Assembly: GCA_963733675.1 (NCBI GenBank)
Contig: CAVTET010000001.1
Coordinates: 672,001-736,000 of the forward strand
Direction: 5' to 3'
DNA from: an uncultured Methanosarcinaceae archaeon
Lineage (GTDB): Archaea; Halobacteriota; Methanosarcinia; Methanosarcinales; Methanosarcinaceae
Length of the DNA: 64,000 bases
The notes beneath the pieces were generated by a model. That model saw only the letters and a list, made by a program, of their open reading frames with translations. It was not told the DNA's origin and did no database searches. Position 1 is the stretch's first letter; each line of letters opens with the position of its first letter. This document shows positions 33,178-48,910 of this stretch, piece by piece. Made by a program: the position numbers and the translations under genes.

Positions 33178-33735
33178 TTATTTGAATAGCTTCAGGCCGG
33201 CAGCTTTTGCTTTCTTCATAAGCTCGGCATCATTCATTACTTCTCCTGGAGTATGGTATCCAGCTGCAACAAGAGTATCCTTTACATCCATTCCCATAAA
33301 GCGGGAAATTTGGCCTCCAAATTCTTCATAGACCCCTTTATATGCTGCAGGATCAGGCATACCCTGGGCTACCACAATTATGGCTTTTTTTCCACATGGA
33401 AGGCGGGTAGAATGATCTGAATTTATTAGGGAATAGCAACGATCCAAGAAGAGCTTCATCTGGCCTGAAAACTGACCAAAATAAATAGGAACCCCAAAAA
33501 TAACGCCATCAGCTTCTGCTAATTCTTTGAAAAGCTCTACAAGGTCATCTTCAAGTTTGCACTTCTCATGAGACTTACAGTAGTCACAGGCCTGACAGCC
33601 ACTGTACTTCATTTCGTTAAGGAGAAAAGTCCTAGTCTTTGCCCCAGCTTCGACCTCTCCTTCAAGAACCTGCTGGACGAGAGTGTTTGTGTTTCCATTT
33701 TTGCGGGGACTTCCTACAATACCTATAACTTTCAT
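33178..33735 (-). CDS. Iron-sulfur flavoprotein (Isf/flavodoxin family)
   Basis: GSPRKNGNT and Cx2Cx2Cx5C (CQACDYCKSHEKC). Confidence 0.9.
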   Translation of the reverse strand: MKVIGIVGSPRKNGNTNTLVQQVLEGEVEAGAKTRTFLLNEMKYSGCQACDYCKSHEKCKLEDDLVELFKELAEADGVIFGVPIYFGQFSGQMKLFLDRCYSLINSDHSTRLPCGKKAIIVVAQGMPDPAAYKGVYEEFGGQISRFMGMDVKDTLVAAGYHTPGEVMNDAELMKKAKAAGLKLFK

Positions 33736-34907: not shown

Positions 34908-35576
34908 TTATTTTATCAATCCTTTCTGGACATACCAATCATAATCATGAGCAAAACGCTACTTATTGAATTTTGCCAGCTGGCAAAAATATTCTGTTCG
35001 CTGACGATGTATTTCATCCTGGTCGGTATATTTGATTTTTCCGCAGATTGACTTTACCAGCTTCTTCCCAAGATCTTGCGCAGGCCCAATATAATTCTCA
35101 AGTGCAGAGAGGGCTCTCCCGATTATAAATCCAATGCTTCCAACAAAGGTAATGCCAAGATTTATGAGAACTCCATTCATATATTTCAAGATTTCATCGT
35201 CACCGCTTCCACCAGCTGTGCACACCGAGTACCTAAATTTTCCAGTCAGCATCCGGCAGTGAATTGCATCTGAAAGTCTATCTAAAAGGGCTTTCATTGG
35301 AGCCGGAACAGAGTTAATACAGTTAGGAGCACCAAGAACAACTCCATCAGCGTTCATAATTTTTCCAAATATCTCCATAAAATCATCAAATAAAGAACAT
35401 TCACCTGTAGCATAACAGGCTCCGCATCCAGTACAATATTCGATATTTAGCTTATAGAGATCTATAATCTCAGTTTCTGCCCCTTCAGATTAAGCACCTT
35501 TGATGACAGAATTTGCCAGTTTTGAGGTGTTACTTGCATTGCCCTATGGACTTGCATTGATTCCAATGATTTTCAT
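34908..35576 (-). pseudogene. Iron-sulfur flavoprotein pseudogene
   Basis: MKIIGINASP*GNASNT...GA*SEG...CTGCGACYATGEC; three in-frame stops. Confidence 0.85.
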
Positions 35577-35748: not shown

Positions 35749-36705
35749 ATGCAAGCAATTGAAGTATCTCATCTTACCAAAAAATTCGGATCTCTCACCG
35801 CGGTCAATGATATTAGTTTCTCAGTTGGTGAAGGAGAAACCTTTGGGTTTTTGGGTCCCAATGGTGCCGGTAAAACTACTACAATTCGTATTTTGACCGG
35901 AGTATCAAGACCAACTTCTGGAACAGCAACCATTTTTGGCTATGATATTGAGCATGATACCATTAATGCAAGGCAATCCATGGGCATCGTATCCGAAAAT
36001 TCCAACGTTTACGATGATCTGACTGCATGGCAGAACTTGATGTTCTCCGCGGAACTCTATCATGTGGGACGAAATGAGAGAGAGAAAAAGGCTACCGAAT
36101 TGCTCAAGAAGTTCGAGTTATACGAACGTCTCAGTGATAAAGCGCACGGTTTTTCAAAGGGAATGAAAAGACGTCTGACCCTTGCAATGGGGCTTGTCAA
36201 CAGCCCACGTCTGCTGTTCCTGGATGAACCAACCTCAGGGCTCGATGTACAGAGTAACCTCATCATTCGTGAAGTGGTATCGGACCTCATTCTCAATGGA
36301 GTCACTGTCTTTTTAACAACGCACAATATTGAAGAGGCAAATGTCATGTGTGATCGAGTAGCTATCATCAATAAAGGGAATATCATTGCAATCGATGCAC
36401 CGGAATCTCTGAAAAAGACGTTTAAAGGTTCACAGTCGATTGAGGTATCTTTTGACCATAATTCCGTAGATCACCTGGACGAACTCAGCAGTCTCTCAAT
36501 GGTGAATGACGCACAAAAGGCAGGTGACAAGTTTAAGCTCTATACTGAAGATCCAGCTGAAGTTATTGATGCCTTAGTAGCCTATGCTCACGCGCATAAT
36601 CTTAAAATAATCAGTATTACTACTCTTGGCCCTAGCCTCGAGGATGTATTTGTAAAGTTGACTGGTCTGCAGCGGGCAGGTGATGGAATCCATGCAATCG
36701 ATTAA
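35749..36705 (+). CDS. ABC exporter ATP-binding protein (DrrA-like)
   Basis: GPNGAGKTT, FSKGMKRR, LLFLDEPTSGLD, C-terminal SLEDVFVKLTG. Confidence 0.92.
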   Translation: MQAIEVSHLTKKFGSLTAVNDISFSVGEGETFGFLGPNGAGKTTTIRILTGVSRPTSGTATIFGYDIEHDTINARQSMGIVSENSNVYDDLTAWQNLMFSAELYHVGRNEREKKATELLKKFELYERLSDKAHGFSKGMKRRLTLAMGLVNSPRLLFLDEPTSGLDVQSNLIIREVVSDLILNGVTVFLTTHNIEEANVMCDRVAIINKGNIIAIDAPESLKKTFKGSQSIEVSFDHNSVDHLDELSSLSMVNDAQKAGDKFKLYTEDPAEVIDALVAYAHAHNLKIISITTLGPSLEDVFVKLTGLQRAGDGIHAID

Positions 36706-37459
36706 TCATGCGAGATTGGTAAAACATCTTTTCTGTCAGATATCTGCTGCGTGGGCAATCGCCAAAAAAGACATGAGGATCTATTACCTCAAGCCAAATA
36801 TCATCGTTTCCGGCATCTTTTTCCCGCTTTTTATGTTCCTAGCCTTTGCCATTGGAAAGAACACCCCTCCAGGCACCCTAATCCCGGGATTGATCTCGAT
36901 TACTCTCCTGTTTTCGGCTTCATCAATAGAACCGGTTTCAATACCTATAGAAAGACGTGTTAAAACTTTCGAACGTTTGCTCTCAGCACCTATTTCGCTG
37001 TATTCGCTGGTATCGGGTGAGAGCCTGAGTGGATTTTTTTATAGTCTCGGCATCGCATGTCTTCCCCTTGTCATTGGCGTGATCATCTTCAATACAACTA
37101 TTGTAAATGCAACTGTCCTTGTGATTGCTATGATCCTCACAGCATTCTGTTTTGCCACGCTTGGGACACTGTTTGCTGCATACCCTACAGAAAATGTGGG
37201 TGAGGTCATGTCTATGCTTAATACAGTAAGGCTACCGCTCATCTTTATATCTGGTGTTTTTGTCCCGATATCTTCTATGCCTCAGATAGGCCAGAAAATC
37301 GCACTTATATCACCACTTACATATGGAAGTGATCTTATCGAGTATGCGTATACCGATAAATCGCTATTTCCACCTTTTATGGATATGGTGATGCTGTTGA
37401 TCTTTATCCTAATATTTCAGATAATAGCAAACTATCTTTATAAGACATTTAACGAATGA
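36692..37459 (+). CDS. ABC-2 type permease
   Basis: About six TM helices; ER..KTFERLLSAP, FISGVFVPI, SPLTY; overlaps the ATPase stop. Confidence 0.9.
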   Translation: MQSINHARLVKHLFCQISAAWAIAKKDMRIYYLKPNIIVSGIFFPLFMFLAFAIGKNTPPGTLIPGLISITLLFSASSIEPVSIPIERRVKTFERLLSAPISLYSLVSGESLSGFFYSLGIACLPLVIGVIIFNTTIVNATVLVIAMILTAFCFATLGTLFAAYPTENVGEVMSMLNTVRLPLIFISGVFVPISSMPQIGQKIALISPLTYGSDLIEYAYTDKSLFPPFMDMVMLLIFILIFQIIANYLYKTFNE

Positions 37460-37644
37460 GGGTTAAAAAACTTAACTGGTTAAGATATCAAACAGTTAAG
37501 AAAAACACTCTCATAGTGAAATACTATTTTTGCTAAAAATAATCTTATTTAGTAGAATTCATCCTAGACCTACATTGTTGTAACGAGGGCCTCTTTCATC
37601 ATGGACTCAAAAAGATATTTATATCCATTTGACATGGAGAATTT

Positions 37645-39072
37645 GTGAAACAGGAAAACGATTTCATAGTTTTTCATGGTAATCTACAGCAATTAATGGA
37701 AAAAGTGGAAACGGGAGAAATGATCCCCAAGCTTCAGGCTTCACACTCCCCAATGTGCAAATTTTTTACTGCGTATTACGTTATCAGTGGGATCCGTCAT
37801 GTAGTTCCCCTGGTCCACGGTCCGACCGGATGTCCGCTTTACATGTCGGATTTTGTCAGGACACGTGAATGCTGCGAGATCCGTGGAGTTCCACTAGAAC
37901 CCACAGCCTGCACCTCCCTTGATGAAAGCCACATCATCTACGGGGGTGAGGGAAAACTCCTGGAAGCAGTAAAGGAAGCATATACAAAGTATCACCCAGA
38001 TCTCATCGTCATCCTCTCTTGTTGCTGCTCTGGGATTATCGGTGATGACGTCGAAAGTATTGCTCGTGAGGCAGAGAAGTTGGTTGGTTGCAGGGTGCTA
38101 GCGCTCCGCAGCGAAGGGTTTGGTGGAGATTTCCGAAGCGGCTATGAGGACGCGTTCAAGCTCATCATGGAGTTGATGGAGCCCCCAAAAACGAAAATGA
38201 AAGGGACGATCAATATCCTCGGGGCCCGTTGGGGCCCTTCCCCCACAGAGTTCAACTGGGACATGGATGAGATAGAGCGACTTCTTGGTGAAATTAGAAT
38301 AAAGATAAATGCCATCATCGCGGGAGGGTGCACCGTCGAGCAGATTAAGCATGCTCGGGAGGTCGAACTTAATGCTTCATGGTGCTTTGACTGGGGGCAG
38401 AAGCTGGGCGATCTGATGCAAGAAAGATTCGGAATCCCTTACAGCCGTACCGGGCAACCCTATGGCCCTGAGGCCACAAAGGAATGGCTGCTCGGCGTGG
38501 CAACACCTCTTGGTATGGAGACAATGGCTATTAAAGTGATCGAACGAGAGCTACAGGAAGTAGAACCGGAAATAGCATATCTAAGGCAAGCTCTCTCCGG
38601 AAAAACGGCTATTGTAGAGATATCGGAATTCCCCGGGCCGATACGAGCGCTTTCGATTGCAAGGATGGCAGCAGAGTTTGGTGCACATCCTGTCGTCATC
38701 AACGTTCATCCATATACGATCAAGGAGCGTATGCCCAGCATCAAGTTTCTCCTGGAAACCGGAGTTAACCCGGAGATTATCCTGACAAAAGGACTCTTTC
38801 GGCTAGGGAGCTTTCGGTCATCCAAAGAGACAGAAGACGAGCTAGAGTCAATTGTTAAGGAATATGATAACCCTATTTTCTTCGGAAACTCAGGCCGGTT
38901 TCCTCCCTGTCCAGTGGTGAACTTAACACTCATGAACCCGTCGTTTCAGCCCCAGTACGGCTTCCGGGGGATTAGGAATATCGCCGCTCTGGTCAGACAG
39001 GCACTTGAGAACAAAGATCTACCACGTTCGCGATTATTTAAGGGGATGCTCTATGGAACAAGGAAATTTTAA
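37645..39072 (+). CDS. Nitrogenase component-1-like alpha subunit (NifD/NifE-like)
   Basis: PMCKF, VHGPTGC, IIYGGEGKL, SCCCSGIIGDD, SEGF, LNASWC, PQYGFRG. Confidence 0.9.
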   Translation: MKQENDFIVFHGNLQQLMEKVETGEMIPKLQASHSPMCKFFTAYYVISGIRHVVPLVHGPTGCPLYMSDFVRTRECCEIRGVPLEPTACTSLDESHIIYGGEGKLLEAVKEAYTKYHPDLIVILSCCCSGIIGDDVESIAREAEKLVGCRVLALRSEGFGGDFRSGYEDAFKLIMELMEPPKTKMKGTINILGARWGPSPTEFNWDMDEIERLLGEIRIKINAIIAGGCTVEQIKHAREVELNASWCFDWGQKLGDLMQERFGIPYSRTGQPYGPEATKEWLLGVATPLGMETMAIKVIERELQEVEPEIAYLRQALSGKTAIVEISEFPGPIRALSIARMAAEFGAHPVVINVHPYTIKERMPSIKFLLETGVNPEIILTKGLFRLGSFRSSKETEDELESIVKEYDNPIFFGNSGRFPPCPVVNLTLMNPSFQPQYGFRGIRNIAALVRQALENKDLPRSRLFKGMLYGTRKF

Positions 39073-40411
39073 GGAAACGGTTGGGCCATCAGAGTCTTCC
39101 TCGGAGACGTGCACTGACCCCTACCTTCGCTGTGCTTTCAACGGTGCCGCCCTGACGGCCCTTGGAGTCTCTCGTTCTGCTCTGCTTGCACATTCTCCAC
39201 AAGGATGCGAGTATCTCGTCAACAATGCCTTTGCTTCGCAGGAGTGTGATTATATGGAGACAATGACCCTCTGTACCAAGCTCTGCGTGGACGAGATCGT
39301 GTATGGTGGAGAGGACATCCTTACCCGCACAATTCGGAAGGTAAAAGATCTCACGATCTCTGCCCTTTTCGTGCTTAGTGCATGTGGTCCCGAAATTGTG
39401 GGCGACGATATTGTAGCAGTATGTGAGGCCCTGCAACCAGAAATGAAGTTCCGACTCGTTCCAATTGAATGTGCCGGGTTCCGAGGATCGCAATACGATG
39501 GCATCGACATCGCGCTGGATACGATCCTAAAAAAGCTGGTAAAAGACGACGTAGAGAAGGTACCCGATTCGGTCTGTCTTGTTGCTCCCCACGCCAATGC
39601 CAACCCGACATGGCCGGCAGACCTTACATGGGTGAAACAGATTCTTTCTAGGATGGGCATTAAGGTTGTAGCCACGCTCACACACCAGACTCCGATTTCT
39701 GAAATCGAAAACATCGCATCTGCTGAGACCTCCCTCCTGCTGAGCCACGATGCTGGGCAGAAAGCAGCAGATTACCTTTTAACTGAGTATGGCATCGAGC
39801 AGATATGTCAAGGGATACCCCTTCCAATAGGGATGACAAACACGCAACATTGGTTGACCGTGCTGGGTGAGCGATTCGATGTGCTGAAAAGGGTGGAGGA
39901 GATAGTTGCAGAAGGCGAACGGATGGTGATGGCAACGTGCCGGCGCAAGTGGCCGATGGCGAGGTTCCTGTATAGGACTCCGACAGCGATTGTTGCCGAT
40001 GCAACGGTCGGAATCCCTCTAGTCCGGTTTGTTACCGAGGAGATGGAGATGACCCCTGAGCTCGTTGCCTTGTACACCTCACAGAGACCTACGCGGGAAC
40101 TGCTGGAGCGGGAACTCCAGAGCCTTGGTCTCAATCCGAAGATCATTTACGGAACAGACGTGTATAAAACACGGAAGAGTATTCGGGAGGTCAGGCCACG
40201 GGTTGTGTTCGGTAGCACCATCGAAAGGCATGCAAGCGAGGGACTTTCCGTGGCCTATGTTATTGAGATCGTTAGGACGATTCGCCAGTTTAGGATGATC
40301 AATCGGGAATACTTCGGATATACAGGCATATTGAACCTGTTCGAGTGTATTCAAAATGAGTGGACTATGGGATGGCGTTCAAAAGAAAGGAGATATGAAG
40401 CAAGGTGGTGA
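39053..40411 (+). CDS. Nitrogenase component-1-like beta subunit (NifK/NifN-like)
   Basis: LRCAFNGA, HSPQGC, IVYGGE, SACGPEIVGDD, LPIGMTNT, YFGYTG; overlaps the end of the alpha gene. Confidence 0.9.
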   Translation: MEQGNFKETVGPSESSSETCTDPYLRCAFNGAALTALGVSRSALLAHSPQGCEYLVNNAFASQECDYMETMTLCTKLCVDEIVYGGEDILTRTIRKVKDLTISALFVLSACGPEIVGDDIVAVCEALQPEMKFRLVPIECAGFRGSQYDGIDIALDTILKKLVKDDVEKVPDSVCLVAPHANANPTWPADLTWVKQILSRMGIKVVATLTHQTPISEIENIASAETSLLLSHDAGQKAADYLLTEYGIEQICQGIPLPIGMTNTQHWLTVLGERFDVLKRVEEIVAEGERMVMATCRRKWPMARFLYRTPTAIVADATVGIPLVRFVTEEMEMTPELVALYTSQRPTRELLERELQSLGLNPKIIYGTDVYKTRKSIREVRPRVVFGSTIERHASEGLSVAYVIEIVRTIRQFRMINREYFGYTGILNLFECIQNEWTMGWRSKERRYEARW

Positions 40412-40417
40412 AGGAAT

Positions 40418-41263
40418 ATGAGACAGATCGCTATCTATGGCAAAGGTGGAATAGGGAAGAGCACGATAGCTTCAAACCTGTCTGCCGCATTAAATACGAT
40501 GGGGCACATGGTAATGCAGGTTGGCTGTGATCCAAAGAGGGATTCGACAAGAATCCTTGCAGAGGGGAAGTTTATTCCCGCAGTACTGGAAGAACACCGA
40601 GAACAGCTTAGGTTAGGAAAAGATGAATATGCGATAAATCTCGACAATCTGGTCTTCAGATCACCCAGTGGGATTTACCTTGTCGAGGCGGGAGGACCGG
40701 AACCTGGTATTGGGTGTGCTGGTAGAGGCGTGCTGACAGCTCTGCAAATCCTAAAAGACCTCAAGGCTTTTTCTACCTACAACATTGACATAGCAATCTA
40801 TGATGTCCTCGGAGATGTCGTATGCGGTGGATTCTCGATGCCTATACGTGAAGGATTTGCGGAAGAAATCTATCTCATCTGTTCTGGCGGCTTCATGAGT
40901 ATCTATGCGGCAAATAACATCGCTAGGGCTGTGCAACGCCTAGCAAAAAGGGGGGATACCGGCCTGGCAGGGATTATCTGCAACAGCAATGGAAATGAAG
41001 CATTTGAGCATGCAGTCATCCCGGCTTTTGCAAAAAAGCTGGGAACCCCTTTTGTCCAATTTGTCCCCAGGAGTCCCGTGATCCAGGCATGTGAACTGGA
41101 AGGTAGACCTGTAGTGGAGTACGCCCCCGATTCACTGGAAGCGGAAATATTTCGGAAACTTGCAAAAGCGATAATGGAAAATGATTCACGTGTGATCCCA
41201 ACGCCAGTAAGCGACCTTCCAGAGCTTGAAATGATGTATCGTCAGCATCTGGTGAAGATATAA
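40418..41263 (+). CDS. Nitrogenase iron-protein-like reductase (NifH family)
   Basis: YGKGGIGKST, GCDPKRDST, GGPEPGIGCAGRG, DVLGDVVCGGF. Confidence 0.95.
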   Translation: MRQIAIYGKGGIGKSTIASNLSAALNTMGHMVMQVGCDPKRDSTRILAEGKFIPAVLEEHREQLRLGKDEYAINLDNLVFRSPSGIYLVEAGGPEPGIGCAGRGVLTALQILKDLKAFSTYNIDIAIYDVLGDVVCGGFSMPIREGFAEEIYLICSGGFMSIYAANNIARAVQRLAKRGDTGLAGIICNSNGNEAFEHAVIPAFAKKLGTPFVQFVPRSPVIQACELEGRPVVEYAPDSLEAEIFRKLAKAIMENDSRVIPTPVSDLPELEMMYRQHLVKI

Positions 41264-41302
41264 GAAATCAAGATATCAGATCATTTCACGGGTGTATTAT
41301 GC

Positions 41303-41935
41303 ATGAAATACGTCGATATCGACAGGATTTACCAGACAGTACCGCTTGATAAAATTCCCTGGAATAGTGAAGCACCCCCAGATAAGCTTGTTGAGCTGGT
41401 GCAAAGTGGAAAAGTCCGACCCTGCAAGACCATTGATCTCGGTTGTGGCGCTGGTAACTATGCAATATACCTGGCAGAGCGGGGATTTGAGGTAATAGGT
41501 GTCGATAGTTCACCCACTGTAATAAAGATCGCTACTGAAAATGCACAAAAACGAGGAGTCAGGTGCAATTTTATTGTCGCTGATCTTCTAGGTGACCTGC
41601 ATGAAGTTAAAGAGACATTTGATTTTGGCTACGACTGGGATTTTTTGCACCATATATTTCCAGAAGACCGGGGAAAATATGTAAAAAATGTGTATAATAT
41701 TCTGAAACCAGGAGCACAGTACTTATCAGTCTGTTTTTCTGAGAAGGATCCACAGTTTGACGGCATGGGTAAATACCGGAAAACCCCTATAGGAACAATA
41801 CTGTATTTCTCTTCGGAATCCGAAATACATGATCTTTTTTCACCTTATTTTGACATACAAGAACTGAAAACGATAGAAATCAAAACTAAATCTGTGTCAC
41901 ATTATGCAATTTATGTATTGTCTGAACGACGCTGA
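41303..41935 (+). CDS. Class I SAM-dependent methyltransferase (TPMT/thiol-methyltransferase-like)
   Basis: IPWN motif before DLGCGAG; GFEVIGVD; YD..FLHH. Confidence 0.88.
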   Translation: MKYVDIDRIYQTVPLDKIPWNSEAPPDKLVELVQSGKVRPCKTIDLGCGAGNYAIYLAERGFEVIGVDSSPTVIKIATENAQKRGVRCNFIVADLLGDLHEVKETFDFGYDWDFLHHIFPEDRGKYVKNVYNILKPGAQYLSVCFSEKDPQFDGMGKYRKTPIGTILYFSSESEIHDLFSPYFDIQELKTIEIKTKSVSHYAIYVLSERR

Positions 41936-41993
41936 GTATTAAATAAGAGTTGTATTTCTGAGACTTAGTCCAAAAATCCATTGATGAACGTAA

Positions 41994-42084
41994 AATTAAG
42001 CTTCACAGTTGGCAAAGGAGAAAAATTTGGGTTTTTGTATCCCAATGGTGCTAGCAAAACCACTATTATTTGTATGTTGACCGG
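41994..42084 (+). pseudogene. Degenerate 5' fragment of a second ABC ATPase
   Basis: SFTVGKGEKFGFLYPNGASKTTIICMLTG parallels SFSVGEGETFGFLGPNGAGKTTTIRILTG at about 35815-35901. Confidence 0.75.
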
Positions 42085-42700
42085 GAGAGCTATGGTTGCC
42101 TAGGTGCCTGTGTAGAGCTGGGCTTTGGCGATGCATTATGGGAAGGTGTTAAATTCATGTCAACATTCTTTGTGAGGATGCAGAAAGCAGCGAGAACCCG
42201 GAAGCTTATTGTACAACTGTACAGCGCGAGAGCTAAAGCTCCTCACAGTGAACGCCTTCACAGAAACGCGGATAAAGCAAAGCGGTTCATGAACGTGTAC
42301 CTACTAATCACAAACATTGCTGAAAAATAAGTGATCTTCTCACCCTTAAGCAAAGTGAAACCCTCTGAAAGCACGCTTTTTGTGATGTTTGCTACAGACC
42401 CAATGCAGATCATCACGCTCGTCAAGCTGGTTGAAGCTATCCACGAAGGTACCGATCCAGTGTGGGTCCCAGCCAATGTGAGCCTGCCAGCAGATAAGGG
42501 TATTCGTGTATGAGGAGGCAATGAAGGAGCATCTGCAGGAAGTACTTGAGTACACGGACCTTGCCGCACTGGGGAACGTTAGAAAGACCAGCACAGCGAA
42601 CATTTAACGTTCGCTGTGCCGTTCTCACTCTTAGAGAAGATGGAAGAGGAGTAAAAAGTTGGTGTTTCAATAGCCCGATTTGGGAAGGGCTCGCTCAGAG
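42085..42700 (+). pseudogene. DUF169-like pseudogene
   Basis: ESYGCLGA..LGFGD, VIFSPLSKV, DPMQIITLV, VPFSLLEKMEEE in broken frames. Confidence 0.6.
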
Positions 42701-42718
42701 CAATGAGGTGTAGTGATC

Positions 42719-43501
42719 ATGACATACACAGATTTCAAAGAAATCGGGGCAAAGCTGAAGGCAGCATTCAGGCTTTCGACACGCCCTCTTGCTGTATACG
42801 GATCTGAAGTCCTACCAGCGAGCATTCCACCGATGACCAGAGTTAACCGGTGTTTTGCTGTCTCGATGTATCGGATGGCCACAGTAAACGAGATATCAGC
42901 GATCTATGTAAGTGCCGACATCAGTGAAGACTGCTGCCTCGGTGGGCTCTATCATATGGGATATATTCCAATACCTGATGAAATCAAGTATTTTGTATCG
43001 ACCGGCAGGAAAGATGTTCGTGGCGGGGCAGCAGAATACCTGAAAGCAGATCCGGAGCTGGTAGAGCGCTGCATGTTGTTGGCTGGACCGATACATCCAC
43101 CGGGAAAATATCTTATCGTTCAGGCATGTGAAACCCTTCCAGATCCTGGGCCTGCCATCAGATCCCTGTGTTGCTTTGGTACAGCCGAGCAAATACGTAA
43201 TATTGCGGCACTCATTCACTTCGATCGGGACGACCCATTTTCACCTGTGATCGTTCCCTGGGGATCAGCCTGTTCTACATATATCACATTCCCGGCTGGC
43301 CTTGCTGACAAAACACCGCTTGATACCGCATTCATGGGCCCGCAGGATCCCACACAGAACCATTCCCTGCCTCCAGAAATGATGGCGATAGGTATTCCTG
43401 TTGATATGGCCGAAAGAATGGAAAAAAATCTCGACGCTTCGTTTATCATTCGGAGACCGCAAGTGGCATTTCCCAATCATGAGAAGCAATTGAAACAGTA
43501 G
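42719..43501 (+). CDS. DUF169 family protein
   Basis: LSTRPLAVY, RCFA, CCLGG..HMGY, AEQIRNIAAL, PWGSACS, EMMAIGIP; GAGGTG SD. Confidence 0.8.
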   Translation: MTYTDFKEIGAKLKAAFRLSTRPLAVYGSEVLPASIPPMTRVNRCFAVSMYRMATVNEISAIYVSADISEDCCLGGLYHMGYIPIPDEIKYFVSTGRKDVRGGAAEYLKADPELVERCMLLAGPIHPPGKYLIVQACETLPDPGPAIRSLCCFGTAEQIRNIAALIHFDRDDPFSPVIVPWGSACSTYITFPAGLADKTPLDTAFMGPQDPTQNHSLPPEMMAIGIPVDMAERMEKNLDASFIIRRPQVAFPNHEKQLKQ

Positions 43502-43810
43502 ACTACCGGAAACAAGGGAAGACAAAGCGAAATAACATTTTAATTGAATTACAGTGCAATGGTTTTGCCCCTCATACGCAGGAGTCACATACCAGATTCC
43601 AGCTTCAGCCCTTGCGCCTTCAACTCAAGGCCAATATTCAAACCAAGATCCAAACCAAAATCCACCTCAAATCTACTAAAAGTGTGGAATTGCATTAAAC
43701 AAAAAAAGTAGATATCAGTAATAATAATTCTTATATAATTAAGGCCGAATAAAAAGAAAAAAAATATTTGATCCAACCTTAAATTGTTAATTCAAATAAT
43801 ATTATCGATG

Positions 43811-43983
43811 TTTAATTTTCACTTAATTTTATCCTTCACGAGATCAATATAACAATTTTTTGGCTTTTGGACATAACATATATTTTAAAAAAACTGCGTA
43901 TATTCAGCACAATCCGGTTAAAATGTCCGATAATTCCGGCTGAAAAATGCAAATATACATAGGTTTTCACACAAAAAACTGTG
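43811..43983 (+). repeat. Family B repeat, copy 2
   Basis: TTAATTTTCACTTAATTTTATCCTTCACGAGAT ... CACAATCCGGTTAAAATGTCCGAT ... GGTTTTCACACAAAAAA. Confidence 0.75.
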
Positions 43984-44186: not shown

Positions 44187-44947
44187 TTAGATTAAGTGAC
44201 TGCATCTTAATAATATCAATACACCTATAGCAATGAGCACTAAACCAGCATTTCCCACATATTTAACATTCTTCTCGGAAAGCCCAATTTCGATATTAGT
44301 TTGTACTTTAGTCAAAACTATAAGCAATAAGCCTGCTATCACTAAAATAACACTTATTCCCTTAAGTAAGGTATCATTCGAATTTGGTGGTTGAGGCGTT
44401 GCCTTTGTATCTGTACCGTTGAGTTCTACCTTTCTTTGGGGTGGCACTGCAGGGATAGAACCTATAAACTGTTCAAAAGTCTTCGGAGCGTCCCCTACAG
44501 GCACGTTAGGTAGCCGCATTTCAGTTTTATCGTTGATTACTGCGACATATTTGTCATTTTTACATACTACATATACTTCTTTTCCATCAGGTGTGATCGC
44601 AACTCCATAAGGCCCATTACCTACAGAAACTGAAGTAATTTGGTTTGTTGCTGTGTCAATCACAGATACATTACTACTGTATTGGTTTACCACATATACC
44701 TTTTTTCCATCTGGGGTGACTGCAACTCCTATAGTTCCGAGTCCTACAGGCACAATGTCAATGACGCTGTATGTGATCGTGTTAATCACAGAGACTGAAT
44801 TGTCTTTTTGATTTGCAATATATGCATATGTATTTAGGGAAGAGGTACTTTGTGTAGCAGCTATCGAAGCAGACGAAAATAGAATTGAAAATAAAAGTGC
44901 GGTTACGATACTAAAGCTAGTAAATATAGTTTATTTATATTTTTCAT
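44187..44947 (-). pseudogene. YVTN beta-propeller protein with C-terminal TM pair; frameshift in the signal peptide
   Basis: GVAVTPDGKKVYV repeats; the ATG 44947 frame stops after 14 codons and the leader continues in another frame. Confidence 0.7.
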
Positions 44948-46267: not shown

Positions 46268-47404
46268 CTATTTCATATACTTATTTAGGAATTCGAACAC
46301 TTTATCCATATTTTCAGTAGTTCCGAATGGGTATCCATAATGACGTGTTCCGTTAAGTAAAGTAACGGGTACACCGTGACCTGCTCCTTCAAGTAATGTA
46401 AGGGTTACTTTATTTTGTCCGATTGCTTTTATGATTACAGCTGCAAGGTCAACAGATTGCTGCGTTGGAACTAGTGGATCCAGGGTGCCGTGCTGAATTA
46501 AAAATGGGGGGCACTCTGAAGTTATATAATTTGTAGGGTCTGCCTGTTTACACAGGTCCGGTACCTTTGAGACATTTTGCCCTAAATATCGTGATGGGAC
46601 AGAATATTTGGTATTATAAATATGAACTCCTTGTACTTTCTCTCTAAGTCCACTTTCTGTGAATTGTTTATCCATAACACAGAAATTTGTAGGCCCATAC
46701 CAATCAACTACTGCTGTTACATTATCCAAAACGTTTGCGTTGCCGAGAGATGTATCATAGCAATTATTTGTGCCACCTGTTGTGCCTGCAAGTGCAGCAA
46801 GATTTCCACCTGCTGAACTGCCCCATAGAGCAATCTTATTAGGATTTAAATTATATTGCGCAGCATTAACTTTAATAAAACGAATAGCTGCTTTTGCATC
46901 ATTTATTGCTGCTGGGAATTTAGCTTCGTCACTCAAACGATAATCAACAGTTATCACCGCATAACCATGATTTAAACCCTTAAGCATAGGAGCTGTATAT
47001 TGTCCACTTTTATTGCCCTCATAAAATCCCCCACCATGAAATGCTATAATCATAGGGAAGGGACCTTTTCCTTCATTTGACAGATATATATCAAGTTATT
47101 GTGTTTATGATTTAGTGGCATGAGCAATATCAGTGAATTTATTTTTCATGCTTGGTGGCGGTGATATTTTGTCTCCACATCTACATATTTGGTTGCCGAC
47201 TTTCAAGTTGCCGTTATTTTTCTCATTAAATAAACCACTATTCACATTTTCATTAAAGTTTTCGTTGAGACTTCCCTTATCAAAGCTCCCTTTTTCATTT
47301 CAGCAATTAGCTGCACTTACTGTAATCGTCACAGATGCCATAAAAAAGGCTACAAATAAAATACTCAGTGGCTTTTCTGTTCTGTGAAATATTTGTTTTC
47401 CCAT
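46268..47404 (-). pseudogene. Alpha/beta hydrolase (HSL-like esterase) with stops in its 5' part
   Basis: HGGGF, GSSAGG, QHGTLD, GAGH; upstream in-frame leader and LDIYL segment interrupted by TGA/TAA/TAA. Confidence 0.8.
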
Positions 47405-47977: not shown

Positions 47978-48910
47978 TCAAACCTCTTTTTTTCCATGCT
48001 TGTACAGATACTGCTCGACAACACTTTTTGAACTATACCATATCTTTCCAATTTTTACCGCATCTAAAAGCCCCTGTCTGGACCGCAGGCTGAGATATTC
48101 TTGAGAATAAGGGGTTGCTGGAGCAAGTTCGTTGAGGGGTAGTAGTTCATCGATCCCGCCAGAAATAGAGAGGTATAGAGTCAGGTTTTCATTCACGGCT
48201 TTTGCAATAAAATTGGCAAATGAAGCGAGATTTCCCGCATCTGCAGTTTTAAGGGATTTGTAGTATTTTCCTCTTTCCTCTTTTTTGAGCACGACAGTAG
48301 GGTAATCTCTTGCTATCAAATATAGATTCATGAGGAGACGAGCTACTCTGCCGTTTCCGTCACTGAAAGGATGAATCTCAACAAACCTGTGATGCAGGAA
48401 TGAAGTTGTTTCAACAGGATGCTCTTTACTTTCAGCTATCTTCTCAATCAGTTCGTCCATCAGTTTCATTATCTTTGACCAATCAGGGGAAGCTTTTACT
48501 GCACCGGCTATCCTCACATTTCTGGTACGGTATCTCCCGGCATCATCAAGTATACCTTTAGTCACGATTTCATGGATTTTTTGAATTGTAATTTGGTCTA
48601 TTGAACGTTTTTTCTTCGCGAGCTCTTCCATTAGGTCAAAAGCTTTTGCGTTATTGCTTGCCTCAATATGCTCTCTTAGAGATTTTCCGCCAATGGTCAG
48701 CCCTTCTTCTAGAACGAGTTTTGTCTCCTGAAGTGTTAGTGTGTTTCCTTCTATAGCATTGGAGTGATAGGTGTGTGCCAACCTCATTTCGCCATGCAGC
48801 TTTCCTAAAGCATCTGCAGGAATGGGCCTCATAGAGTCAAGTCTCTTCATTTTTTCATCTATTCGTGCAAGAAGTTCTTTTTGAATCAAGGACGTATCGG
48901 TATTTATCAT
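47978..48910 (-). CDS. Fic family protein with C-terminal HTH-like extension
   Basis: HPFSDGNGRVAR catalytic motif; SNAIEGN inhibitory motif; YSQEYLSLRSRQGLLDAVKIGKIWY tail. Confidence 0.92.
   Translation of the reverse strand: MINTDTSLIQKELLARIDEKMKRLDSMRPIPADALGKLHGEMRLAHTYHSNAIEGNTLTLQETKLVLEEGLTIGGKSLREHIEASNNAKAFDLMEELAKKKRSIDQITIQKIHEIVTKGILDDAGRYRTRNVRIAGAVKASPDWSKIMKLMDELIEKIAESKEHPVETTSFLHHRFVEIHPFSDGNGRVARLLMNLYLIARDYPTVVLKKEERGKYYKSLKTADAGNLASFANFIAKAVNENLTLYLSISGGIDELLPLNELAPATPYSQEYLSLRSRQGLLDAVKIGKIWYSSKSVVEQYLYKHGKKEV

Follow-up and report, generated by a model that had tools for sequence, protein, structure and literature searches.

Group IV nitrogenase-like (NFL) systems without an assigned function are an already known kind, according to the accessible parts of a review of NFL systems published in 2026, a 2026 paper in mBio and Dos Santos et al. 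(2012). In the available sections of the review, two main problems are named, namely the function of many uncharacterised systems and the lack of genetically tractable carriers. Among the described systems closest to the one treated here is methylthio-alkane reductase (MAR), for which marBHDK is given as the essential gene set in the excerpts at hand. The equivalent of Cys275 holds FeMo-co in NifD and an L-type cluster in MarD. The accessible text of Dos Santos et al. describes NifE/N-related pairs that have three P-cluster cysteines in each subunit and Cys275 and lack His442, for which N2 reduction was judged highly unlikely; their 'green' class includes proteins from Proteobacteria, Archaea, Firmicutes and Fibrobacteres. 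Here we describe a locus in a 64,000-nucleotide stretch of DNA from an uncultured Methanosarcinaceae archaeon, hereafter called the window, which encodes the D, K and H components of a two-component NFL system, together with a methyltransferase, an exporter and a DUF169 protein. The window corresponds to G000:C1:672001-736000 in a 3.9-Mb, 15-contig genome with a GC content of 0.358, whose closest relatives in public genome collections are Methanosarcina or Methanosarcinaceae genomes. The literature drawn on, available in part for each item, comprises PMC13474568, PMC13753814, PMC8890362, PMC8399215, PMC3146512, PMC5322559, PMC8762117, PMC3464626 and 10.1101/648329.

The initial annotation of the window had proposed nitrogenase-fold D, K and H genes in D-K-H order that belong to no characterised clade; the first proposal was borne out, and the second holds with respect to Nif/Vnf/Anf, canonical NifE, the MarD-anchored clade and CfbD. 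Two PF00148 genes and one PF00142 gene are present, and their order is constant in 25 genome loci. Against solved structures, D scores 113 bits to Clostridium pasteurianum NifD, 110 bits to MarD and 96 bits to a NifEN fusion, with similar values for K; entries 9fmg and 9d9u were taken as the MAR structures on the basis of the literature on MAR. A HMMER search of 1.84 billion representatives returned 1995 proteins at E <= 0.001, among which the D clade forms a single cluster at 50% identity. The next matches are found at 353 bits (P0121, 39% identical) and 324 bits (P0122, 36% identical), and all further ones are at or below 201 bits. Trees of D were calculated with 121 rows (quick) and 56 rows (careful), in which the known groups are anchored by Nif/Vnf/Anf, canonical NifE, MarD and CfbD and neither of which holds a named NfaD or IsrD reference. 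In the 56-row tree, the D clade (support 100/99) has as its sister (98/90) a group made up of P0121 and of P0122 paired with a Methanosarcina VnfE-position protein. The clade and its sisters lie within a larger group (100/97) that also takes in CfbD, on a long branch, and two clades without names. Another, separate clade (95/84), sister to this larger group, was identified as MAR from the 456 bits that its member P0205 reaches against MarD (9fmg_A). NifD, VnfD, the second D protein of the same genome and NifE form their own clade (100/99), apart from the D clade. Of 10 clusters inspected for names, 2 carry any. P0278 and P0167, inspected in order to name the neighbouring clades, have no PDB match at E <= 1e-30, and the sister P0121 has no relative in the metagenome scan.

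Five known assignments were considered and rejected. Membership in the true nitrogenases (Nif/Vnf/Anf) was rejected because D falls outside their 100/99 clade, scores far under the cut-offs of their NCBIfam models and lacks His442, Gln191 and His195. MAR membership was rejected because D lies outside the MarD-anchored clade. The best NCBIfam match of both D and K is NifE, but D reaches 154 bits against a cut-off of 505, and NifE itself groups with NifD and VnfD, so a canonical NifEN was likewise rejected. CfbCD was set aside because two different subunits are present here instead of one homomeric D-like subunit, D scores 45 bits to the CfbD model (cut-off 268), and the genome has its own cfbD elsewhere. 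The exclusion of DPOR/COR (Group V), already made in the initial annotation, agrees with the profile scores, of which the best among BchN, BchB, BchY and BchZ is 113 bits against cut-offs of 420-529.

The nearest relatives of the D-K pair, which the initial annotation had left out of account, are encoded in Methanosarcina V-nitrogenase clusters at the positions of vnfE and vnfN. In five large genomes of the same genus, D-like and K-like genes with 37-38% identity lie directly after vnfH-I1-I2-vnfD-vnfG-vnfK and before a NifX-like gene, a position which indicates that they occupy the vnfE and vnfN slots; K is 38% identical to the VnfN-position protein. The VnfE-type paralogue was found in 12 of the 59 same-genus genomes examined. 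In the accessible part of Garcia et al. (2022), 'early diverged VnfE clades' with an ambiguous placement are mentioned, and on our own reading the Methanosarcina VnfE-position proteins may be the same group. As a separate observation, these 'VnfE' and 'VnfN' proteins (L056 = G110:C1:3305000-3324000; also L057, L058 and L061) reach no more than 164 and 128 bits against the NifE model, whose cut-off is 505, and are nearer to the stand-alone D-K clade than to canonical NifE/N.

The D, K and H genes were all found in 25 of 36 genome loci (35 plus the window), always on one strand. Most of the other 11 loci end at a contig edge, whereas L049 has a deletion and L045 has D without a following K. In the Anaerolineae locus L043, the radical SAM protein encoded behind H is NifB-like and scores 273 bits to TIGR01290; NifB adjoins H in the host genomes G121 and G122, and D-K-H-NifB is also present in L044. 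For the non-methanogen part of the clade, metagenomes were searched with an alignment of its most divergent members, and the best 80 of 363 confirmed stretches were analysed. All 80 contain D, whereas K was detected in 64 of them, H in 53 and NifB in 45. NifB lies behind H in 42 of the 43 metagenome loci that have at least 1700 nt after the H start, and in 39 of those 42 it begins within ~1050 nt of that start. Beyond D, K, H and NifB, no neighbour family occurs in more than 4 of the 80 loci. The regular presence of NifB indicates that the unit of the clade is a self-contained D-K-H-B module, and the absence of nifB, which the initial annotation had noted for the window, holds for the methanogen copies only. 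These copies lack a linked nifB, but their genomes carry one elsewhere; nifB is present in all five host genomes tested and in the genome of the window. As to variants of the locus, the Chloroflexota D at L045:7581-9410 carries an N-terminal extension of ~135 aa (609 aa in total) with no K gene behind it, and the K and NifB genes of this host lie on another contig (G122:C661).

The D-K-H system stands alone and does not serve a nitrogenase downstream of which it lies. In the 3.3-Mb genome of the Anaerolineae host G121, the D and K genes of the clade are the only two PF00148 genes. Three Methanoregula hosts have no match above 258 bits and no canonical NifDK; their PF00148 genes are the D-K pair itself, a second short pair and a CfbD-like gene. 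Separately, adjacent PF00148 matches with open frames of ~354-396 aa were seen in the Methanoregula hosts G123:C37, G124:C4 and G125:C1.

The cluster-ligand residues were compared in an alignment of 111 clade members. The D cysteines equivalent to alpha62, alpha154 and alpha275 are present in all 111 proteins, and that equivalent to alpha88 in 109. At position 442, 101 proteins have Thr, 5 Ser, 4 Gly and 1 Gln, and none has His; the residue aligned with Gln191 is Arg in 110 members, and that aligned with His195 is Tyr in 95 and Phe in 15. All 21 clade K proteins compared have the cysteines at the alignment equivalents of beta70 and beta153 as well as C90 and C94. The P-cluster cysteines (three each in D and K) and the Cys275 equivalent thus appear to be kept. 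Because His442, Gln191 and His195 are missing, N2 fixation is unlikely. The alpha88 cysteine is absent from NifE and from the VnfE-position sisters but kept in the D clade, which makes the ligand set at the P-cluster site D/Mar-like rather than E-like. The H protein has the P-loop and both cluster-cysteine motifs (GKGGIGKS, CAGRG and VCGGF). It is 50% identical to NifH of the same genome, 47% to CfbC and 46% to the second NifH; its scores are 277 bits to NifH of C. pasteurianum and 272 bits to MarH. We also noticed in the MAFFT alignment that the NifK of the genome itself (C1:896768-898138) has no Cys in the beta95 region, possibly an alignment effect, and has a Cys 7 residues past the beta70 equivalent.

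The retention of the P-cluster cysteines and Cys275, combined with the replacement of the residues needed for N2 reduction, suggests that the system most likely works in the manner of MAR. We therefore favour, with a probability of roughly 55%, a MAR-like ATP-driven reductase that acts on a small substrate other than N2, and whose product in methanogens is acted on by the methyltransferase and exported by a pump. In such a scheme, D and K would form the catalytic component and H its dedicated ATP-driven electron donor. H would hydrolyse ATP and pass low-potential electrons to a P-type cluster and from there to a cluster in D that is made by NifB. At this site, a small diffusible substrate would be reduced, probably by cleavage of a carbon-heteroatom bond. 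The methanogen operon would have lost nifB, for which the host's own nifB can serve, and gained the TPMT-like methyltransferase, which may cap a nucleophilic product such as a thiol, a selenol or similar. In the long form of the locus, as in the window, a DrrAB-type ABC pump would export the methylated product or the toxic substrate, with DUF169 and FMN_red acting as putative facultative helpers of the methyltransferase/efflux module. The data show the anatomy of the genes, the placement of the clade, the conservation of ligands and operon, the co-occurrence counts, purifying selection and the presence in RNA libraries; we infer which types of cluster are bound, that methanogens depend on NifB for them, what class of substrate is used, and in which order reduction, methylation and export take place. 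The organosulfur or metalloid chemistry put forward in the initial annotation is likewise speculative.

D, K and H are under strong purifying selection. For pairs of the window with two same-genus copies and one Methanoregula copy, dN/dS is 0.02-0.05 for D, 0.07-0.08 for K and 0.02-0.08 over D, K and H together, compared with 0.11-0.19 for the methyltransferase (dS 0.5-1.9). Contigs from RNA libraries (four runs from two studies, peat and other metatranscriptomes; 93-99% alike) span most of the locus. Single contigs bridge D and K (X1 record 4, X5 record 28), K, H and the methyltransferase (X3 record 22; X2 records 13 and 14), the methyltransferase and the pseudogene behind it (X1 record 7), and this pseudogene and DUF169 (X1 record 8). 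The bins 37312-37625 and 43592-43905 have little or no contig cover in the four runs.

The methanogens gained D-K-H horizontally, as several sequence comparisons support. Methanosarcina and Methanoregula-type genomes share 87-93% identity in D, and dN across the orders (0.043) is close to that within the genus (0.034-0.043). The Methanosarcina D proteins nest among sequences of Methanoregulaceae, Methanoculleus and Methanocella. GC3 of D, K and H is raised (0.46-0.55) compared with the genome GC given above and with GC3 values of 0.42 for the genome's own nifD and 0.45 for nifK. The distribution of D is patchy in the two genome sets surveyed, which are 59 genomes of the same genus (Methanosarcina), with D in 11, and a 61-genome sample of the family of the Methanoregula host, with D in 9. 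Saturation of the synonymous sites indicates that the transfer is not recent.

All eight plus-strand open reading frames listed in the initial annotation are present at 35749-43501, and seven of them are intact genes. The features of the locus and its surroundings are compiled in Table 1.

Table 1. Coordinates of the D-K-H locus and neighbouring features (positions in the window; profile scores in bits)
Feature	Coordinates	Strand	Length	Profile match or other evidence
FMN_red-fold flavoprotein, possible electron carrier	33178..33735	-	185 aa	PF03358, 81 bits
Truncated FMN_red gene, C-terminal part only	34959..35378	-	139 aa	PF03358 profile positions 66-150 of 152
ABC ATPase, DrrA-type, ABC-2 exporter	35749..36705	+		PF00005; TIGR01188 drrA 330.8 bits (cut-off 312.45)
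ABC-2 permease	36680..37459	+		PF01061, 73.8 bits
D, alpha-type subunit of nitrogenase-like component 1	37645..39072	+	475 aa	PF00148, 235 bits
K, beta-type subunit	39005..40411	+	468 aa	PF00148, 250 bits
H, NifH-type ATP-dependent Fe protein	40418..41263	+	281 aa	PF00142, 311 bits
Methyltransferase, TPMT/TehB-like, class I S-adenosylmethionine-dependent	41303..41935	+		PF13649; PF05724 TPMT 50 bits (cut-off 26)
Relic of ABC ATPase gene (Walker-A region)	41999..42084		86 nt	Direct repeat D1, 81% identical to 35815-35900
Pseudogene, second DUF169 paralogue	~42079..42690	+		tblastn with L029 paralogue, 43% identity, E 4e-41
DUF169 protein	42713..43501	+	262 aa	PF02596, 96.7 bits
Beta-propeller-repeat open reading frame	44187-44789
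Esterase gene	46268-47053
Fic-domain protein like 'mobile mystery protein B'	47978-48910	-		~4.5 kb downstream of the island

The initial annotation had described the genes as co-oriented and tightly spaced, which is correct for the ATPase/permease pair (26-nt overlap) and for the run from D to the methyltransferase (D/K overlap 68 nt, K-H gap 6 nt, H-methyltransferase gap 39 nt). It does not extend to the permease-D gap of 185 nt or to the 777 nt between the methyltransferase and DUF169, a distance at which that junction cannot be called tight. Within this latter gap lies the DUF169 pseudogene, which contains in-frame stops and frame changes and includes the 86-aa reading frame of the initial annotation; its intact counterpart stands in tandem with the other DUF169 gene in the Methanoregula loci L029 and L074. 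The truncated FMN_red gene clusters with a 260-aa gene that is divergent to and upstream of D in L029. The repeat pair formed by the ATPase relic and 35815-35900 points to a past rearrangement of the island. No tRNA, Rfam family or convincing flanking repeat was found in the window, so the boundaries of the island are undefined there. Promoter-like sites (16 versus 17.9 expected, by a bacterial consensus that is unsuited to an archaeon) and terminator-like sites (6 versus 8.8 expected) are not above chance. In Table 1, the beta-propeller-repeat frame and the esterase gene are situated between the island and the Fic gene.

PF00148 genes other than D and K are absent from the window, as are nifB and PII genes, and vnf/anfG was not searched there as a family. 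The reported absence of nifI1/I2, nifEN and nifB is thus correct for the window but not for the genome, which has all of these elsewhere: a nifH-I1-I2-D-K-E-N cluster at C1:893255-901287, a second H-I1-I2-D-G-K cluster on C4 with a 116-aa reading frame in the G position, and an intact nifB at C1:1077684-1078514. With cfbD/C on C3 (CfbD 370 aa), the D-K-H locus is the fourth nitrogenase-fold system of the genome. As further observations on the genome, no E/N genes stand behind the second nitrogenase cluster (C4:161364-166425), K-like gene fragments with stops were seen at C12:21645-22495, and NifX-like pieces with stops lie at C4:156961-157285 and C12:17369-17692.

Recurring linkage of the D-K-H genes to methyltransferase, DUF169 and ABC genes had also been anticipated, and a survey of neighbourhoods supports it for the methyltransferase, in methanogens only; for the ABC and DUF169 genes, the linkage fails by the refuting condition that the initial annotation had set. 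Of the 17 genome loci flanked by 3 kb or more on each side, 12 contain the methyltransferase, 6 the ABC permease, 5 the ABC ATPase, 6 DUF169, 5 FMN_red and 1 a major facilitator superfamily (MFS) protein. By lineage, the methyltransferase is present in 8 of 9 loci in Methanosarcinaceae, 4 of 6 in Methanomicrobiales and 0 of 2 in Chloroflexota. It starts 36-138 nt behind H in 11 of the 13 loci bearing it, the others being L029 (2.6 kb) and L042 (6.6 kb). In the same-genus set, a methyltransferase of at least 79% identity is present in 11 of 11 genomes with D versus 2 of 48 without D, and one of the two matches in D-less genomes is a fragment; where D and the methyltransferase are on one contig, they are 0.2-2.2 kb apart. 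In the Methanoregula-family sample, the methyltransferase was found in 16 of 61 genomes, that is, in 8 of 9 with D versus 8 of 52 without D. All five Methanoregula hosts without an adjacent methyltransferase carry a copy elsewhere (70-76% identical). We report counts without statistics because related genomes are not independent. Among the partners, only the TPMT-like methyltransferase tracks D-K-H in methanogens.

The methyltransferase passes the Pfam gathering threshold of PF05724, with residues 16-201 aligned to profile positions 13-201 of 218. Its closest solved structures are 6mro, an uncharacterised Methanosarcina acetivorans enzyme (95 bits), and 8gdu, followed by toxin, thiol and halide methyltransferases; these relatives would fit a small nucleophilic substrate without proving it. 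Two Methanoregula loci also have a 402-aa nitrogenase-fold protein, 32-34% identical to D, adjoining the methyltransferase (L073:10329-11537, minus strand; L076:2-913, minus strand), and this protein groups with P0181 (100/100).

The genes for the ABC exporter, DUF169 and the flavoprotein are facultative members of the locus that go along with the methyltransferase. ABC ATPase orthologues with 90% identity or more are confined to the closest Methanosarcinaceae loci, and relatives of 44-48% identity lie near D or the methyltransferase in Methanoregula. FMN_red homologues adjoin D-K-H or DUF169 in L029 and L025. The DUF169 protein of the window is 69-89% identical to copies in L025, L029, L042, L049 and L050, and the island type (at least 86% identity) is found in 4 of the 59 same-genus genomes, whereas 43 others have only a 37-45% identical paralogue. 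C47, C75 and C187 (window numbering) of DUF169 are conserved without exception in both types of paralogue as well as in a distant third copy, suggesting a metal or redox site. A PDB sequence search with DUF169 gave a chance match only (E 0.085), the protein atlas returned only DUF169 clusters, and three papers mention it in gene lists only. Its AlphaFold2 model is poor (8-row alignment, mean pLDDT 58.7) and had no Foldseek match in the PDB at E <= 0.001. Export-type transporters near D-K-H are an ABC-2 system in the window, a DHA2 MFS protein in L026, L029 and L034, and MFS_3 behind NifB in L043; three unrelated kinds in three lineages give a weak hint that something is exported. In our own reading, there are two modules, the D-K-H(-B) enzyme and a methyltransferase-centred efflux/redox module, which are coupled in methanogens mainly via the methyltransferase.

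Several observations weigh against the proposed MAR-like reductase or against its coupling to methylation and export. The methyltransferase, ABC and MFS genes are found in none of the 80 non-methanogen metagenome loci (DUF169 in 1, FMN_red in 2), and the two Chloroflexota genomes have no methyltransferase orthologue. The sequence of reduction, methylation and export therefore cannot be the general mechanism of the clade, and the seven-gene package was not upheld as a conserved unit. The methyltransferase also occurs in the D-less genomes counted above, and kinship among the genomes means that the association is weaker than the co-occurrence counts make it look. In L073 and L074, from genomes that encode D-K-H at another site, ABC, DUF169 and FMN_red genes are still grouped with the methyltransferase, and they may be an independent module for detoxification. 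NifB may be kept by methanogens for other reasons (the available part of the review mentions L-cluster-like cofactors in the MCR activation complex), which makes its presence in the methanogen hosts weak evidence. The RNA-library contigs can contain DNA and give no proof of a single transcript. Of the 11 same-genus D copies, six are full-length without stops, while G138 (C2) has one stop, G152 (C4) is split, G071:C1:647187-648155 has five stops, and G153:C19 and G156:C3/C4 hold fragments. D-K-H is being lost in some lineages, with some of the breaks possibly being assembly errors; these decayed copies and the three scars in the island of the window indicate that the system is dispensable.

The alternative that concerns the partner genes only is that the methyltransferase, ABC-2 pump, DUF169 and flavoprotein constitute an independent methylate-and-efflux module which shares a mobile island with D-K-H by coincidence. 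The module is indeed seen apart from D-K-H in L074 (ABC, MFS, methyltransferase, two DUF169 genes and FMN_red) and in L073 (two ABC genes, MFS, methyltransferase, MarR, Usp, a flavin reductase and the 402-aa PF00148 protein), and the rearrangement scars, the eight Methanoregula-family genomes with the methyltransferase and without D, and the toxin and thiol methyltransferases among its solved relatives agree with this explanation. However, it leaves the narrow H-methyltransferase spacing and the joint occurrence of both genes in two orders, even when unlinked, to chance, and in L073 and L076 the methyltransferase stands beside a second, different nitrogenase-fold gene. We consider a purely coincidental package possible, although somewhat unlikely.

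An explanation by sulfur scavenging retains the MAR-like chemistry, so that D-K-H(-B) would cleave a C-S bond of a small organosulfur compound and so provide sulfur in sulfur-poor anoxic habitats, as in MAR/ISR, and the methyltransferase, pump and DUF169 would be unrelated to it. The four components are the same as those encoded by marBHDK, MAR is sister to the wider group holding the D clade, and the accessible parts of the review and of the mBio 2026 paper tie Group IV NFL genes generally to sulfur metabolism. A self-contained module without fixed neighbours would also suit a diffusible substrate whose product enters existing pathways. On the other hand, no sulfur-assimilation family was found among the neighbours scanned, most of which are not annotated, and the families that recur in the 36 genome loci are only the methyltransferase, ABC, DUF169, FMN_red and MFS. 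The tested non-IV-C systems, which probably did not include the D clade, were all without MAR activity in R. rubrum according to the available text, and the co-occurrence of D with the methyltransferase in two methanogen orders would go unexplained. We consider sulfur scavenging unlikely.

A more tentative idea, which we regard as doubtful, is that D-K-H-NifB is a free-living catalytic relative of a maturase-like nitrogenase ancestor, using a NifB cofactor for a reductive reaction new to the superfamily. An example would be the anaerobic cleavage of carbon-heteroatom bonds beyond the MAR/ISR substrates, with the methanogen methyltransferase trapping the product.

D and K could instead be a cofactor scaffold or maturase similar to NifEN/VnfEN, which together with H and NifB builds or carries an Fe-S cofactor for another protein. 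It counts for this role, and against a catalytic one, that the nearest relatives sit in maturase slots before a NifX-like gene; NifE is also the best NCBIfam match of both subunits. Moreover, D has the 'GY' motif of NifE/N/K at position 195 and lacks His442, which are maturase features according to the accessible part of Garcia et al. The alpha88 cysteine kept in 109 of the 111 D proteins is difficult to reconcile with a scaffold, because NifE and the VnfE-position sisters do not have it. In the Anaerolineae genome there is no other PF00148 protein to receive a cofactor, and the three Methanoregula hosts offer no canonical NifDK. The patchy distribution likewise speaks against such a role, and two genomes (G126 and G152) carry both D-K-H and a VnfE-type pair, which indicates that the two types are not interchangeable. 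A scaffold is improbable. A cryptic nitrogenase that fixes N2 in nitrogen-poor peat would match the minimal gene set (H, D, K and B), the Methanoregula hosts without canonical NifDK and the implication of Group IV-A Nfa in N2 fixation (available part of the review), but it is highly improbable given the residues at 442, 191 and 195, the lack of PII genes at the locus, the verdict of Dos Santos et al. on proteins lacking these ligands, and the genome paper of Methanocella paludicola, whose accessible text reports only nifH homologues and ammonium uptake.

We return to the MAR-like reductase and its possible significance. The literature searched contained no account of the D-K-H-B operon of this clade, its sister relation to VnfEN-position proteins, its spread in methanogens or its link to a methyltransferase, which agrees with its initial designation as an undescribed system; closed supplements of NFL studies may list members. 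The sister relation to these odd VnfEN proteins bears on the maturase-like origin of nitrogenase debated in the available text of Garcia et al. The D-K-H clade helps with both problems named at the outset, being widespread (363 metagenome stretches), self-contained as a four-gene module and strongly constrained. It is present in closed Methanosarcina genomes and in the cultured M. paludicola (D 83% identical), and Methanosarcina has established genetic tools. Should peat and wetland methanogens indeed carry out a new ATP-driven reduction by this system, the cycling of trace gases, sulfur or metalloids in these habitats could be affected.

A comparison with the known systems places the D-K-H clade as follows. 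With MAR (MarBHDK, Group IV-C) it shares a NifB-like protein, H and D/K, as well as the kept P-cluster cysteines and Cys275 and the absence of His442. In contrast to MAR, the gene order is D-K-H-B instead of B-H-D-K, the score of D to MarD is no better than that to C. pasteurianum NifD, the methanogen copies have a methyltransferase partner, and no sulfur-metabolism neighbour recurs in the 80 metagenome loci. The Methanosarcina VnfE/VnfN-position proteins resemble D and K in overall identity, in the additional cysteines C77 and C229 of D and C90 and C140 of K, in the Arg at the Gln191 position and in the lack of His442. However, they are located inside vnfH-I1-I2-D-G-K-[E]-[N]-X clusters and have no alpha88 cysteine, whereas the D-K-H system has its own H and, outside methanogens, NifB beside it. 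The 'green' class of Dos Santos et al. has the same ligand pattern (three P-cluster cysteines per subunit, Cys275 and no His442), but it is a broad descriptive class without functions, and its available text has no D-K-H-B operon, methyltransferase link or VnfEN sister relation. CfbCD (Group IV-B) likewise combines a NifH-like reductase with a PF00148 component in methanogens, and its CfbC is close to H in identity, but CfbD is a single homomeric subunit of ~370 aa, unlike the two subunits of 475 and 468 aa found here. Nfa (IV-A) and ISR (IV-F) are also two-component Group IV NFL systems; they differ from the D-K-H locus in that it has no PII genes, and ISR, as described in the accessible part of the review, diverges at the P-cluster cysteines that the D-K clade keeps.

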